From: an uncultured archaeon
Lineage (GTDB): Archaea; Halobacteriota; Archaeoglobi; Archaeoglobales; Archaeoglobaceae
Length of the DNA stretch: 64,000 bases
Assembly: GCA_964471215.1 (NCBI GenBank)
Contig: CAYYFC010000001.1
Coordinates: 1,615 to 65,614, forward strand
Direction: 5' to 3'
Shown here: piece after piece, positions 20,432-63,710 of the stretch
Position numbering within the stretch: the stretch's first letter is position 1
Layout: each line of letters begins with the position of its first letter
Position numbers and translations under genes: made by a program
The notes under the pieces: generated by a model
Databases searched by the model: none
What the model was told of the DNA's origin: nothing
The model's input: the letters and a program-made list of their open reading frames with translations, nothing else

Positions 20432-21547
20432 TTAAACCTCTTCAAACCTATCCTTGAGCTTCTCAAGAACCTTTGGCAGCGTCGTATACTCCATCTCCTC
20501 TCTCGGTAATCTGTGGGGTTCGAAGGGTCCATGTCTTCTTATATAATCACATATCTCCATTGCCCTCATTCTCGTGTATTCAAATGCAGGATCGTCGAAG
20601 ACATCAACAGGACCTATTAACATTCCATTGTTAAGCTGAAAACCAGCACCTATGCATCTCGGTGGACCGTCAAATCTCGTACACTTACTGTATCTGAACG
20701 GAACAGGGAGTATCGGACCGTTGTGACTTCCCCTCATCCATCCGCTTACCAGATGCGGAAATGCGAATGCCTCAAGTATTTCTCCGACAGCAGGTAATCC
20801 CGACTGCGCTCTTACAATCGCAACAGGATCGTCCTTTCCAACATACTCCCCTGCTATTTGATAAAGCTTCTCGGTACTTATCACGGCCACTGGCTCTTCT
20901 GGAGGTAACTTACCGCCTTCCTTCGGATATACCCTTTTTATGACATACCTGCTCTTAGCACCTATTAGTGCCAGTAGATCGTACATCTCTTCTGGAGTAG
21001 ACATTATAACCCTTTTATGCTCCATTATATCCCAAACCTCAAATCTGAATCCCATATGCATCGAAGGATCGATGACAAGTCCAGCAGTGTTAAACGGATC
21101 CGCAAATATTTTGAATATGGGAAGGTTAAATGCACCCGGTTCTGTTTTATCCATCATGAAGACTATTATCGGTTCCGCCGGCCTTTCCGTAAATTCCATT
21201 TCGGCAACTCCTGGACCTAGTCCTCTTATATTACCAGAAAATGCATCGGCAAGCAGATCCTGTCCGGCACCATATAGCTTTAATTCCTTGGCTTTTTTTG
21301 CACACTTTTCAAAAGTATCCCAAGCCAGACCGTGTATTTCTTCACTGTCAACACCTTTTCTATGAGTCATTATAAGCTCTAGATCGTCTCCTGCATTCAT
21401 TATTCTGAAATCGATTATAAGCCCTTCATCCCTTGCACTCTTAAGATTCCTTTCTGCAACTACTTTTATCTCCTCTGGAACCACACTATGCCCAGCAACG
21501 CTTCCAACATCTGCTTTAATAACGCTAACGGTTATTTTCTCCACCAT
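20432..21547 (-). CDS. fbp: Fructose-1,6-bisphosphate aldolase/phosphatase (class V FBPase)
   Basis: 371 aa. The N-terminus ITVSVIKADVGSVAGH and the motifs DDLELIMTH and GPGVAEMEF are characteristic of the archaeal bifunctional FBP aldolase/phosphatase. Confidence 0.92.
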   Translation of the reverse strand: MVEKITVSVIKADVGSVAGHSVVPEEIKVVAERNLKSARDEGLIIDFRIMNAGDDLELIMTHRKGVDSEEIHGLAWDTFEKCAKKAKELKLYGAGQDLLADAFSGNIRGLGPGVAEMEFTERPAEPIIVFMMDKTEPGAFNLPIFKIFADPFNTAGLVIDPSMHMGFRFEVWDIMEHKRVIMSTPEEMYDLLALIGAKSRYVIKRVYPKEGGKLPPEEPVAVISTEKLYQIAGEYVGKDDPVAIVRAQSGLPAVGEILEAFAFPHLVSGWMRGSHNGPILPVPFRYSKCTRFDGPPRCIGAGFQLNNGMLIGPVDVFDDPAFEYTRMRAMEICDYIRRHGPFEPHRLPREEMEYTTLPKVLEKLKDRFEEV

Positions 21548-21756
21548 AACCCTACATAATTTCCAGACAATTTAAAGTTTAGGGTTTTTAAAATATGAGA
21601 AATATATATTTTTATTTTTTTATTAATGTGCTACAGGATTAGTCGATCTCAAATGGTATCGTAGTTTTTTATCTTAAACATGTATATGAGAAATTTTAGA
21701 TAATTTTTTGGACTATTCACAGATTAGAATTAGAGATATTTAAGGAGCTATGCAAA

Positions 21757-21765
21757 TTTTTAAAT
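21757..21765 (+). promoter_or_regulatory. TATA-like box (TTTTAAATA) about 25 nt upstream of structured-RNA candidate copy A
   Basis: This AT-rich octamer matches the archaeal TATA consensus. Its spacing to the first conserved block (GCCATCAG at 21785) is about 24-27 nt. An equivalent box occurs at the same spacing in copy B. Confidence 0.45.
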
Positions 21766-21781
21766 ACCTTTTCAATTTAGA

Positions 21782-21938
21782 GGGGCCATCAGCTCATAAG
21801 ACGGCGTTACATTTAAGGCTGGTTACGTGGTGCCAGCCAACTTAGCTCTATGTGAAGTGCTGATTCATGAAGCACTAAGGGAGAAGCCCGTGCAAGCTTC
21901 TAAAATATCTATAGTTGATAATGCACGGACAACCACGT
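21782..21938 (+). ncRNA. Candidate structured small RNA, copy A (class unknown)
   Basis: The segment is locally GC-rich in a 0.7-kb AT-rich spacer. It forms stems GCCATC/GACGGC, GGCTGG/CCAGCC (21817-21838), AGTGCT/AGCACT (21856-21876) and CCGTGCA/TGCACGG (21888-21928). The 3' ACCACGT (21932-21938) is complementary to loop ACGTGGT (21826-21832). A paralog at 52316-52478 shows compensatory stem changes. Confidence 0.55.
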
Positions 21939-22264
21939 GTACTCTCTGGCATATAAACAATCCTCCATCAATGTATACTCCATCTCATGCATATTTGAAG
22001 ACATGTGTAAATAATTTTATAGAATTTATTTGTATATATTATAATCTAATATATTTTTAAGTCCTCTGATGTATGAAAAATTCGAGAATGTATTGATAAG
22101 ATAGCATGAATTGTGCGAATAATGATGCTTAGAGTTTTTAAACCAATATATTATCGAAGGAGTTTTTTACTCATAAAAATGTTTCTGTAAAAATAGAAGG
22201 ATCCCATTATGAGATGAGAATCCCTTGATCGAATGATTTATTAATTCTAAGGACTATTATCACT

Positions 22265-23011
22265 ATGATGAAACTAGAGAGATGTCAAACAGGGATCCCG
22301 GGATTTGACGAGCTGTGCGAAGGAGGATTGATAAGGGATAGGAGTTATCTCCTGTCCGGTGTATCTGGAAGTGGAAAGACCATATTCGCCTTACAGTTCT
22401 TAGTTGAAGGAGCATTAAAGTTTAAGGAACCGGGAATATTCATAGCAACAGAAGAAAGACCTCAGCACATAAGAGAGCACGCATGGTCTTTTGGATGGGA
22501 ACTCGAAAGACTTGAGGATGAAAACATGCTTGCAATAGTCGATGCCACTTCGACAAAAATAGGTTTGCCCAGTGATGAGAAGTACGTGGACATAAGACCA
22601 TTCGACACTCGCTCATTACTCGATCAGATAATAAATATACAGGATGAAATCGGTGCCAGAAGAGCTGTTCTGGACTCAACGACATCTATTGGATTTGCAA
22701 TCAACGATATCTCGAAGTTCAGAGTTGAGCTATTAAAAATATCAACAACTATGGAAGTACTCGGACTAACATCGATTTTAACATGCGAAATAGTTGAGGG
22801 AGAGCATGCATATTCGAGGTTTGGCGTCGAAAACTTCGTCACGGAGGGTACGATAGTTCTATATTACACAAGGGCAGAGAATGTCAGAGTTAGGAGCTTA
22901 GAAATTATAAAGATGAGGGGAACAAATCACAGTAAGAAGATACATCCATTCGAGATAACAAGCAACGGAATAATTGTTCACGCAAAGGAGGAGATATATC
23001 CAGGTTTTTGA
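22265..23011 (+). CDS. Single-domain KaiC/RadA-like RecA-superfamily ATPase
   Basis: 248 aa. It has TGIPGFDELCEGGL, Walker A SGVSGSGKTIFALQF, Walker B-like AVLDS and a C-terminal LEIIKMRGTNHS motif typical of KaiC-like proteins. A TATA-like TTTATTAATT lies about 25 nt upstream of the ATG, so the transcript may be leaderless. Confidence 0.8.
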   Translation: MMKLERCQTGIPGFDELCEGGLIRDRSYLLSGVSGSGKTIFALQFLVEGALKFKEPGIFIATEERPQHIREHAWSFGWELERLEDENMLAIVDATSTKIGLPSDEKYVDIRPFDTRSLLDQIINIQDEIGARRAVLDSTTSIGFAINDISKFRVELLKISTTMEVLGLTSILTCEIVEGEHAYSRFGVENFVTEGTIVLYYTRAENVRVRSLEIIKMRGTNHSKKIHPFEITSNGIIVHAKEEIYPGF

Positions 23012-51813: not shown

Positions 51814-52287
51814 ATGACCCTCATAAGTGCCTCCATCTTTATACTTCTATCGGTTAAATCGTATCTGAGCATTGCTTTTGGGACTAGTCCTCTTTTCAGC
51901 TTTACGACTTTTAATCTCCTCTGGATTTCATTTTCAGTTTCATGTATGTCCAGTTCTATTACACAGTCGGCTATTGCCTTTATTATATTTTTTAATTAGT
52001 TATCCTTTTGACATCATGGTTAGAACTACGGAATCCGTTCTCTTCACATTCATGGATATGTCCCTGAGAACATCGATTATTTCCATATAATCATAGTCGA
52101 ATACAAGGGTGTTCAAGCTGTTTATTATAGCCCTATCGAAGTCATCATCCATGATCCTTAACCTTATAAACCTTAAAGGGTCGTGCTTTGTCTTTCTCAA
52201 AACCGATCTTATGTCTCCTTTACCATTTTTGGACTATTCACTTGTTTGAGTATTTGAGTGATTTTGGAAACTATGGGAACTTAAAAC

Positions 52288-52296
52288 TAATATAAA
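52288..52296 (+). promoter_or_regulatory. TATA-like box (TAATATAAA) about 25 nt upstream of structured-RNA candidate copy B
   Basis: It has the same spacing to the conserved GCCATCAG block (52320) as in copy A. Confidence 0.45.
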
Positions 52297-52315
52297 CTAC
52301 TCACATACTTACTTT

Positions 52316-52478
52316 GGATGCCATCAGGCTTTGCCGATGACGGTGTAATCCCGTAACCCGTACCCTGTGGTGTGCGGGGATGTAGCTCCCAATGAACCAC
52401 CGATGGAGATGAGGTGGCTGAGGGAAAAGCCCGTGCAAGTTCCTATAACTTAAATACCAGATAATGCACGGGCGACCA
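52316..52478 (+). ncRNA. Candidate structured small RNA, copy B (class unknown), located inside and antisense to the KaiC-like pseudogene
   Basis: It has the conserved blocks GCCATCAG, GACGGTGTAA, CTGAGGGAAAAGCCCGTGCAAG and GATAATGCACGGGCGACCAC. Its stems are CCCGTA/TGCGGG (52357-52378), CCACC/GGTGG (52397-52417) and GCCCGTGCA/TGCACGGGC. The stems covary with copy A. Confidence 0.55.
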
Positions 52479-52745
52479 CTCATGAGATCTATTATATCTA
52501 TCTTGTTGAATTCTTCCTTCAATTCAAAATAAACCTTTATGTTCTGAATTAAATGCTCCTTTGTATCGTCATACTTCCAGTGCGAAATGGAAAGGAAAAA
52601 ACGTCTGCTCTAGCTCCTGGTCCCTCAAGTAGGAGAACAAGGCTACCAGCTGGAAAACTCCATCCAACTGGGAATCAAGGGCAGTAATCCCGGTTTTAAA
52701 TTTTTTCATTAAAAGTTATTAAAACGTTTCTCTCAAATAAATGAT

Positions 52746-56935: not shown

Positions 56936-57070
56936 TGGGGCCGGTGGGATTTGAACCCACGACCAGCGGGTCTCTTCGGTCAGAGCTCCAACGGGTCATC
57001 ACATCTCAGGAGACCCGTCTCTCATCACACCGCTGGAGCCCGCCGCGCTTCCTGGCTGCGCCACGACCCC
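56936..57070 (-). tRNA. tRNA-Trp (anticodon CCA) interrupted by a 61-nt intron at the canonical 37/38 position
   Basis: Exon 1 (57070-57033) reads GGGGTCGTGGCGCAGCCAGGAAGCGCGGCGGGCTCCAG. Exon 2 (56971-56936) reads ACCCGCTGGTCGTGGGTTCAAATCCCACCGGCCCCA. Once the intron is removed the cloverleaf is regular. Confidence 0.9.
56972..57032 (-). ncRNA. Box C/D guide RNA carried within the tRNA-Trp intron
   Basis: The intron reads CGG-TGTGATGA(C)-GAGACGGGTCTC-CTGA(D')-GA-TGTGATGA(C')-CCCGTTGGAGCT-CTGA(D)-CCGAAGAG. Both spacers are 12 nt. They are complementary to the tRNA's own anticodon-arm sequences (GAGACCCG, and GCTCCAGCGG with one G-U pair). Confidence 0.85.
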
Positions 57071-63369: not shown

Positions 63370-63710
63370 TGTATGCGGGTGATAAGAGCAATGTTTCAAG
63401 CCCGCTAGGCATACTCTAGATCTGACCTCCCCCTGCCTTAAGGGGCGGAGGTTCCCCATAGGGGAACATGCTCGCATCTGCCTCACGGCAGGTCATTGCC
63501 TTCGGTTTGTGTCATCAGGTTATGTCAAAGCAAACCTCTACAACATTTTCAATATAATTATGACACGAACATATCTCCTATCCCCCTAATTCATCTCCGC
63601 CCCAAAGCTTCCTTAGCGACGGTTGTGAGCCTTGTGCCGCTGGGTTCGAACGCCACCCATGACCCTATGGGATGAGCCGTAAGGCAACTCTCTAGGCGAG
63701 GTGATCCTAT
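63370..63710. other. Locally GC-rich, hairpin-dense non-coding island (candidate structured RNA or RNAs, or a decayed element); strand and class undetermined
   Basis: No ORF of 60 aa or more occurs between 63081 and 64000. Several stems stand out against AT-rich flanks. These include GCGGG/CCCGC (63375-63405), ACCTCC/GGAGGT (63425-63452) and TTCCCC-ATA-GGGGAA (63452-63466). Also present are CTGCC-TCAC-GGCAG (63478-63491), GCC-GTAA-GGC (63676-63685), and the 9-nt long-range complement GGGGCGGAG (63442-63450) / CTCCGCCCC (63595-63603). Confidence 0.3.

Follow-up and report, generated by a model that had tools for sequence, protein, structure and literature searches.

We have analysed 64,000 nucleotides of DNA from an uncultured archaeon of the Archaeoglobaceae (contig CAYYFC010000001.1 of assembly GCA_964471215.1; this whole stretch is called the window below). 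It contains two copies of a short element without an open reading frame (ORF), copy A in the spacer between fbp and a KaiC-like gene and copy B about 30 kb further along. With a probability of about 0.82, both copies are non-autonomous miniature derivatives (MITEs, that is, miniature transposable elements with inverted repeats, or 'mini-IS') of an archaeal insertion sequence (IS) of the IS607 family, and carry a TnpB omega RNA, that is, the guide-RNA scaffold of TnpB. Both ends of the element are homologous to elements that encode TnpA and TnpB. Its fold is conserved and shows covariation, its boundaries are sharp, and its relatives occupy many independent insertion sites.

A preliminary description of copy A had proposed an ORF-less repeated element with a TATA box and a novel stable RNA gene. 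The ORF-less repeated element is confirmed by copy B at 52232-52479, by 20 or more relatives and by the lack of protein capacity: the elements of 226 and 248 bp are overlapped only by mechanical ORFs, and copies A and B differ by insertions and deletions that are not multiples of three. The novel RNA gene had to be abandoned, since the structured part is homologous to the omega RNA that overlaps tnpB and the part upstream of it to the left end and tnpA promoter of IS607-type elements. The features of copy A, and the position of copy B, are as follows (coordinates are those of the window; helices are called P1 to P5, and loci of relatives are cited by L numbers).

21711..21936, plus strand: copy A, complete ORF-less miniature element of 226 bp, read as IS607-derived; similarity to 20 or more family members starts with GACTATTC and stops with ..ACCAC.
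21711..21784, plus strand: left end, with the terminal GACTATTCAC, subterminal repeats and the putative former tnpA promoter; it aligns with the left ends of five IS607-type elements and 20 ORF-less copies.
21728..21749, plus strand: subterminal arm of the left end, presumed binding repeat of the serine recombinase TnpA; its inverted-repeat partner is 21895-21916 (22 nt, 82% complementary).
21759..21766, plus strand: TATA box TTTAAATA; the same TTTAAATA lies 30-36 nt 5' of the tnpA ATG in L007, L011, L023, L044 and L057.
21785..21805, plus strand: P1 hairpin, GCCATC (21785-21790) with GACGGC (21800-21805), one A.C mismatch; copy A lacks the family's inner GGC/GCC helix.
21817..21838, plus strand: P2 or 'nexus' hairpin, GGCTGGT (21817-21823) with GCCAGCC (21832-21838), loop TACGTGGT; six of the seven pairs are compensatory over 23 copies, and GTGGT in the loop is conserved.
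21827..21831, plus strand: 5' strand of the pseudoknot, GTGGT, complementary to ACCAC at 21932-21936.
21846..21883, plus strand: P5, long-range helix of the RNAalifold consensus, CTCT (21846-21849) with GGAG (21880-21883), enclosing P3.
Inside P5, plus strand: P3 hairpin, AGTGCT (21856-21861) with AGCACT (21871-21876); three covarying pairs.
21886..21930, plus strand: P4, long hairpin GCCCGTGCA / TGCACGGAC with one C.A mismatch; it includes CCGTGCA (21888-21894) and TGCACGG (21922-21928).
21895..21916, plus strand: AT-rich loop of P4, which is also the subterminal repeat of the right end and the inverted-repeat partner of 21728-21749.
21932..21936, plus strand: 3' strand of the pseudoknot, ACCAC, with which the putative omega RNA scaffold ends, as does the element on its right side; every copy finishes in ..ACCAC, and the flanks diverge at once.
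21937..21956, plus strand: predicted guide segment in the flanking DNA, GTGTACTCTCTGGCATATAA, by analogy with characterised omega RNAs (PMC10691335; 10.1101/2023.11.20.567912).
52232..52479, plus strand: copy B (248 bp), second of the two and better preserved; it has a small minus-strand ORF and CGI-121 gene on one side and hisI on the other.

Relatives of the two copies were collected with a pattern built on the conserved long hairpin, which was scanned against GTDB genomes and JGI metagenomes. The GTDB genomes yielded 2 loci, both in metagenome-assembled genomes (MAGs) of the Desulfurococcales type, and the JGI metagenomes yielded 57 loci, a few of them GC-rich chance matches and the others clear relatives. 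There were zero matches to the RNA pattern in the viral contigs scanned. By tblastn and ORF inspection the relatives fall into three classes. About 22 loci are ORF-less and lie in unrelated flanks; they measure 239-266 bp (mostly 251-266 bp), compared with 226 and 248 bp for the copies in the window. Six loci of about 2.04 kb (L007, L011, L023, L044, L052 and L057; further fragments are partial) encode a 206-aa protein and then a TnpB of 440-450 aa, and the RNA sequence of the ORF-less copies recurs in them, where it overlaps the 3' end of tnpB. The third class consists of about 16 loci with a second TnpB clade (L001-like) and no tnpA; these elements, too, finish in the long hairpin and ..GGCAACCAC. 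About 45 non-redundant aligned sequences are available from the ORF-less and the tnpB-linked sets combined. The ORF-less family, about 255 bp long, is found at at least 20 unrelated loci in hydrothermal metagenomes, with about 20 distinct flanks and sharp common boundaries.

The 206-aa protein of the larger elements is matched by the NCBIfam equivalog for IS607-family transposases (NF033518, 201 bits, cutoff 110) and by the Pfam models Resolvase (PF00239) and HTH_17, and the TnpB that follows it by NCBIfam guided_TnpB (100.5 bits, cutoff 100) and Pfam PF07282. The left end of copy A aligns with the left ends of five of these elements, in the region upstream of their tnpA ATG. In the alignment, GACTATTCGCTTATTTGAGTA..TTTTGGAAAC..TATA is common to ORF-less and full-length elements, as is GACTATTCGCTTATTTGAGTACTTAGGRTATTTTGGAAAC followed by the TATA box (TTTAAATA or TTTATAT). 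A hidden Markov model (HMM) of the left end, run with nhmmer, recovers all ORF-less copies, the IS607-type elements and, more weakly, the second-clade elements; its match in copy A is 21711-21772 (E = 4e-5). The other end was compared with a covariance model made from the ORF-less copies. This model matches the 3' end of tnpB in all six full-length loci listed above at 138-156 bits, and in distant TnpB loci (L067-L071; 56-61% protein identity) at 74-113 bits. In the whole window it has exactly two matches, copy A (21777-21936, 110.7 bits, E 4.5e-24) and copy B (173 bits; left-end HMM E = 1e-14). Because left and right ends are both homologous to IS607-type elements, we read the window element as a promoter-bearing left end fused to an RNA-bearing right end, from which the genes have been deleted. 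In IS607-family and tnpB-only elements an RNA overlaps the 3' end of tnpB, and since the structured part is homologous to it, we regard this part as an omega RNA.

Among the ORF-less copies, TTTAAAT and TTTATAT are the conserved forms of the TATA box. Since it lies 30-36 nt before the tnpA ATG in full-length elements, it marks the tnpA promoter region, and in the miniature elements it is predicted to act as a promoter. The preliminary description was correct in placing a TATA-like box upstream: TTTAAATA at 21759-21766 stands directly before a genuinely structured RNA. The distance from the end of the TATA box to the first helix is about 26 nt in most ORF-less copies and 18 nt in copy A, and archaeal start sites are expected roughly 22-25 nt downstream of the TATA box. 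Transcription would probably begin at or just inside the start of the RNA. The ends show a further likeness to the IS607 family, whose ends carry subterminal repeats bound by TnpA (PMC6188088). The 22-nt inverted repeat of copy A and an equivalent pair in the family consensus (GGTATTTTGGAAAC and GTTTCCAAAATACC) fit such repeats, and by analogy the arms at 21728-21749 and 21895-21916 are presumably TnpA binding sites.

Our case for a structured RNA rests on the comparison with other copies, because folding of the single sequences does not differ significantly from shuffles for either copy alone (z = -1.06 for copy A and -2.16 for copy B). We aligned 23 distinct ORF-less copies with MAFFT and counted the pairs of a hand-drawn structure of six helices, including the pseudoknot. 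RNAs of the L001 type (second clade) were left out of these counts, since their covariance-model alignment is inconsistent in the 5' half. A standard pair is found in 92.1% of the cells, against 31-51% if the 3' partners are slid by 1-3 columns. Changes on both sides affect 12 pairs (62 cells) and the covariation score is 0.189; none of 500 column shuffles reaches any of these values. Compensatory pairs are most frequent in P2 (6 of 7), followed by P3 (3), P5 (2) and P1 (1), and the A.C position of P1 is a G-C pair in 2 of the 23 copies. RNAalifold on the same copies returns the second hairpin, the long-range helix (CTCCC/GGGAG) enclosing the third hairpin, and the long hairpin. The P3 sequence of copy A is wholly unlike the family consensus CCACC/GGTGG, yet all its pairs form. 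All four helices of the preliminary description are present and belong to a fold backed by covariation, although it had not mentioned the A.C mismatch in GCCATC/GACGGC and had missed P5 as a fifth helix.

P4 is invariant among the 23 pattern-selected copies, since the search pattern had fixed the long hairpin. To bypass this bias, four TnpB loci (56-61% protein identity) were fetched via their protein rather than their RNA. The covariance model located the RNA at the tnpB 3' end in all four, and P4 shows compensatory changes in these loci (GCCCGCGUC/GACGCGGGC and GCCUGUGCA/UGCACAGGC). The preliminary description had been unable to match the RNA to the known classes that it considered, and the Rfam check agrees: no Rfam 15 model reaches its gathering score for the element, and there is no relevant match at E up to 10 in 21550-22270. 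Nor does any Rfam 15 model of the known curated families match (tRNA, SRP, RNase P, C/D, H/ACA and transposon-associated RNA motifs).

Omega RNAs of IS605 and IS607 share a plan in which the loop of a nexus stem-loop pairs with the 3' end of the scaffold, with further stem-loops and then the guide, and mutation and rescue have shown that this nexus pseudoknot is essential (10.1101/2023.11.20.567912). In our family GUGGU and ACCAC are complementary in 97% of cells of the 23 copies, the 3' strand being fixed by the search pattern. As the pairing does not covary, its support comes from conservation, complementarity and analogy; the two strands, conserved but invariant, would correspond to the canonical pairing of nexus loop and 3' end. 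A pseudoknot of 7 bp had been suggested for copy A. Its strands, ACGTGGT and ACCACGT (21932-21938), are indeed complementary, but only five of the seven pairs (GTGGT/ACCAC) lie in the element and two use flanking bases.

The boundaries of the element are sharply defined. At each of the 25 left junctions examined the sequence is R|GACTAT.., and every right end is ..AACCAC; beyond it the sequence is unrelated, and the 3' flanks share nothing. No direct repeats flank the copies. The element placed by the preliminary description at 21705-21940 is real, and family similarity moves its limits to 21711-21936. In the characterised IS607-type CboIStron the core dinucleotide is GG at both junctions and is included in the transposon-adjacent motif (TAM), TGGG, as well as in the scaffold end, ..UCGG. 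By analogy, AC may be the core dinucleotide here, and the TAM may be close to RGAC, with ..CCAC as scaffold end. Characterised omega RNAs have as their guide the stretch that lies 3' of the right end (PMC10691335; 10.1101/2023.11.20.567912). An RNA end at about 21938, as first proposed, does not agree with this analogy, under which the RNA would continue for about 16-20 nt into the flank as a guide. Within the window the predicted guide of copy A matches only the flank itself. That of copy B has only matches with 2-3 mismatches there, and the two examined have no RGAC-like motif upstream.

A repeat search and pairwise alignment show what copies A and B have in common: TTTTTGGACTATTCAC as a block on the 5' side, AT-rich DNA that includes a TATA-like box, and the structured part, with similarity ending directly after ..ACCAC. 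Their hairpins differ yet stay complementary (GGCTGGT/GCCAGCC in A vs CCCGTAC/GTGCGGG in B; AGTGCT/AGCACT vs CCACC/GGTGG). The closest relative of copy B, L031, is a near-identical member of the same subfamily at a different locus, in an Archaeoglobaceae-like contig whose radical-SAM protein has named relatives in Ferroglobus and the Archaeoglobaceae. Hence the subfamily of copy B appears to have moved within the Archaeoglobaceae. Between copy B and hisI, at 52596-52706, there is a GC-richer patch bounded by A/T runs; it folds no better than shuffles on either strand and has no Rfam match.

The published behaviour of IS607 elements suggests how such a miniature could arise and persist. TnpA serine recombinase excises IS607 elements as double-stranded circles and the donor site is resealed scarless; a mini-IS with only its ends of about 40 bp and 60 bp is mobilised in trans by this enzyme; and TnpB with its omega RNA cuts the resealed donor joint, after which recombination restores the element. 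In our case, an internal deletion would have taken out tnpA and almost all of tnpB. Two parts would have been kept, the left end with the terminal GACTATTC motif, the subterminal repeats and the TATA box of the tnpA promoter, and the right 160-170 nt with the omega RNA scaffold, consisting of P1, the nexus P2, P5 around P3, and P4 with the right-end repeats in its loop. The 3' ACCAC would pair with the P2 loop to form the pseudoknot. The retained promoter would start a transcript a few nucleotides before or within P1, and this transcript would cross the scaffold into the flanking DNA and so acquire a guide of about 16-20 nt. A TnpB made elsewhere could then bind the omega RNA in trans, and a TnpA serine recombinase made elsewhere could move the element via the shared ends. 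After excision, the TnpB-RNA complex would recognise and cut the rejoined empty site, and recombination with a sister copy would restore the element, as in the published homing or retention model. Each window copy would be a guide-RNA-only passenger with its own promoter, reliant on TnpA and TnpB from elsewhere. Transcription, loading onto TnpB, mobility and cleavage in this genome are all predicted by analogy with these characterised elements.

Some relatives depart from the common form. L035 (2663-2932) is an ORF-less copy with a 5' RNA part of the TnpB-linked type, which points to an independent deletion. The copy at L054 (8743-8888) is truncated to the left end, P1 and P2, and that at L011 (14600-14774) is degenerate. 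The strands of P1 stand in opposite order in the two sets, TGACGGC..GCCATCA in TnpB-linked copies (L007, L023 and L057) and GCCATCA..TGACGGC in ORF-less copies (52320-52345 in the window, and others), so that the P1 helix is kept but strand-swapped across the deletion junction.

Copy A lies in a spacer of 717 bp (21548-22264) between two genes:

20432-21547, minus strand: fbp, class V fructose-1,6-bisphosphatase (FBPase) gene; Pfam PF01950 FBPase_3, E 9e-184.
22265-23011, plus strand: KaiC-like ATPase gene; PF06745.

The GC-enriched stretch of the preliminary description is confirmed, with a GC content of 0.40-0.48 at about 21760-21960 against 0.18-0.31 across most of the rest of the AT-rich spacer. 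The FBPase falls in a 90%-identity cluster with proteins of Archaeoglobus profundus and several Archaeoglobus sp., to which its identity is 85-89%; the window is accordingly assigned to an Archaeoglobus-like euryarchaeon. The KaiC-like gene and fbp are divergent neighbours in A. profundus and two further Archaeoglobus relatives too, but the spacers there measure 60, 75 and 77 bp. When the flanks of the fetched loci were compared by BLAST to look for empty sites, only duplicates of the same insertion came up. A 14-nt near-repeat, TTAGGGTTTTTAAA (21579) and TTAGAGTTTTTAAA (22129), brackets most of the extra spacer DNA, and a second GGACTATT lies at 22251-22258, directly 5' of the start codon of the KaiC-like gene. 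An independent assembly of the same locus (L004, a Logan contig of SRR7051321) ends 362 nt upstream of the KaiC-like gene, inside the long hairpin of the element; repeats break assemblies in this way. A KaiC-like gene also follows the element in L001. This synteny is a coincidence, as the two KaiC-like proteins are only 32% identical over 63 aa.

The TnpB proteins of the larger elements deserve separate mention. Those homologs of the linked TnpB that carry a name belong to Thermoprotei, Desulfurococcaceae, Ignisphaera, Acidilobaceae, Thermofilum, Fervidicoccus and Bathyarchaeia MAGs. An epimerase that flanks the element in L057 has named matches at about 55% identity in Bathyarchaeia and Methanomethylicota, which is uninformative on the taxonomy of L057. 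The IS607-linked clade keeps the RuvC-I Asp, the RuvC-II Glu and a CxxC..CxxC zinc ribbon; its RuvC-III motif is FNAQYVACLNL, followed about 10 residues later by a conserved (N/D)DG. The second clade (740-2023 in L001; also L014, L018, L021, L028 and L033) is 26-28% identical to the first, has no tnpA and is without all the zinc-ribbon cysteines. Its elements have a related left end, the same long hairpin and the ..GGCAACCAC right end, and the TnpB of L001 has Asn at the position of the RuvC-II Glu (VLVNLN vs VLEDLN).

Several observations weigh against our main reading. Copy A is the most divergent family member (111 bits vs 150-200 bits): it lacks the inner P1 helix, its P4 contains a mismatch and its left end is weak. 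Neither tnpB, which was sought by tblastn with TnpB, nor tnpA lies within the 64-kb window, and among the 120 best homologs of TnpB none of those with a name is from the Archaeoglobaceae. In the IS607-linked TnpB clade the Asp of RuvC-III is replaced by Gln (106) or His (6) in all 112 scorable homologs (counted on proteins P0001-P0120; the clade includes L057 6277-7632 on the minus strand, L007, L011, L023 and L052). Cleavage is uncertain rather than excluded by this replacement, and archaeal, serine-recombinase-linked TnpB branches with an altered RuvC-III are already part of a published census, which argues that conserved alterations may retain activity (PMC10691335). The pseudoknot shows no covariation, both strands being invariant even in the protein-fetched TnpB loci, where ACCAC is still present (L067-L071). 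Copy A accounts for 226 bp of the roughly 650 extra bp in its spacer and leaves about 490 bp of very AT-rich DNA (21548-21710 and 21937-22264) unexplained. Finally, a precise empty site could not be aligned, as the spacers of A. profundus, L064 and L065 are too diverged from that of the window at the base level.

On the strength of such points one could argue that the copies are decaying remnants of past invasions, with no useful RNA, no TnpB or TnpA partner and no function for element or host. The missing tnpA and tnpB in the window, the absence of Archaeoglobaceae names among the TnpB homologs, the low score of copy A with its P4 mismatch and lost inner P1 helix, and the degenerate and truncated copies in L011 (14600-14774) and L054 (8743-8888) would all be expected of a dead relic. 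However, the P2 and P3 sequences of copy A are unlike those of any other copy and are nevertheless perfectly paired, and the subterminal arms of its two ends agree with each other (22 nt, 82%) but not with the family consensus. This argues for evolution under constraint and not for random decay. Copy B, moreover, is near the consensus (173 bits), and L031 is its near-identical counterpart at another locus in another Archaeoglobaceae-like contig. Hence we consider a dead relic possible but doubtful. Far less can be said for an independent cellular small-RNA gene, that is, a structured and stable RNA made from a promoter of its own and serving the host in a way that has nothing to do with transposons. 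Such a gene is suggested by the GC island with a TATA box some 20-25 nt upstream, by the conservation of the fold and by the lack of an Rfam match, but IS607-type elements contain homologs of both portions, of the RNA in their tnpB 3' end and right end and of the promoter in their left end. Copies with sharp boundaries at unrelated loci in different lineages, and the absence of the element from the orthologous spacer in three Archaeoglobus relatives, make a cellular gene extremely improbable.

It could also be that the copies act as mobile regulatory inserts, in which an outward promoter or a bound TnpB-RNA complex alters expression of the downstream gene, the KaiC-like gene in the case of copy A and hisI in that of copy B. 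Both window copies face the 5' end of the next gene, at 328 nt (A) and 266 nt (B), and the related TnpB clade lacks the canonical RuvC-III Asp, like nuclease-dead RNA-guided regulators (PMC10691335). We think this improbable, since the ORF-less copies show no bias in orientation (relative to the downstream gene 8 are co-directional and 9 convergent), the guides consist of whatever DNA flanks the element and have no TAM-adjacent second target in the window, and the elements are linked to a transposase, not to a fixed host gene. We give similarly little credence to a bolder reading, in which the copies are self-promoted stand-alone guide RNAs for an archaeal, serine-recombinase-linked TnpB clade that binds DNA without cutting it, and were acquired by this Archaeoglobus lineage across phylum boundaries; the last part is suggested by the occurrence of full-length elements in Thermoproteota-type contigs. 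If it were true, miniature elements would spread RNA-guided DNA-binding sites instead of homing cuts, and there would be a transposon-borne, promoter-equipped guide-RNA module paired with a non-canonical or nuclease-dead effector.

Among known systems, stand-alone omega RNAs and omega-RNA-bearing miniatures have already been published, and the window family is a further member. Stand-alone omega RNAs without effector or transposase act in trans and have no established biological role (PMC10691335). Like these OMEGA RNAs (Altae-Tran et al. 2021, as presented in PMC10691335), the window family consists of a mobilised scaffold without effector or transposase gene that exists beside effector-bearing loci. 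Unlike them, it occurs in archaea (contigs of the Archaeoglobaceae and of Thermoproteota type), goes back to IS607-type elements with a serine recombinase and has a former tnpA TATA promoter directly before the scaffold, while its activity in trans is only predicted. Palindrome-associated transposable elements (PATEs) are minimal IS200/IS605 elements that often encode an omega RNA (Meers et al., PMC10055086). The window family shares with them the lack of an ORF, the retention of both ends and an omega RNA in need of TnpB from another element (PMC10055086; 10.1101/2023.11.20.567912). The ends of PATEs, however, are hairpins for a Y1 (tyrosine) TnpA acting on single-stranded DNA, whereas here they are short subterminal repeats. 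We therefore rejected an identity as PATEs of the IS200/IS605, Y1 type: the autonomous relatives encode an IS607-family serine recombinase, not a Y1 (HUH) TnpA.

ISC1733 is an element with an orfA (resolvase) and an orfB, and we know of no omega RNA described for SMN1, the miniature element that it mobilises. By description, SMN1 of Sulfolobus islandicus (320 bp; PMC3718332, citing Berkner and Lipps 2007) resembles our family in that it is a non-autonomous, ORF-less element of about 0.3 kb in an archaeal hyperthermophile and needs the transposase of a larger IS. The RNA also resembles the IS607 omega RNAs of CboIStron and the Xylella IS607 (10.1101/2023.11.20.567912). In these, too, the scaffold has further stem-loops after the nexus and ends at the transposon boundary; their nexus pairs with the 3' end of the scaffold, their guide is flanking DNA, and a mini-IS can be mobilised by the TnpA serine recombinase, as is predicted for our family. 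Our family differs in having no intron and no ORF, in a putative core of AC rather than GG and in the absence of any similarity detectable by Rfam models. RNAs derived from RAGATH-18 that belong to IS607 TnpBs (PMC11061315) are a related known kind.

Two further RNA matches lie elsewhere in the window. Rfam calls a 135-nt tRNA at 56936-57070 (minus strand), which ARAGORN does not, and within it lies a full-length match to the C/D-box RNA sR3 (56978-57032, minus strand, 59 bits), which suggests an intron-encoded C/D RNA. At 63409-63538 (minus strand) the HgcC family is matched exactly at its gathering score (50 bits).

What had looked like a novel structured RNA with its own promoter thus turns out to be a false lead, best explained as the guide RNA of a transposon. 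In its place there is now an archaeal family that is well defined, both in its ends and in a fold that has been tested; an IS607-type element with a serine recombinase has apparently lost its two genes in this family, so that the promoter of tnpA has come to stand before the guide scaffold of TnpB. As no Rfam 15 model matches it, a model of this family would help to annotate the genomes of hyperthermophiles, including those of the Archaeoglobaceae and Desulfurococcales-type MAGs. The family would also supply thermostable pairs of TnpB and omega RNA for biochemistry, among them a clade with an unusual RuvC-III residue. For the archaea concerned, it would be a clean example of a stand-alone guide RNA that is self-promoted, through a predicted promoter, and linked to an unusual TnpB clade.

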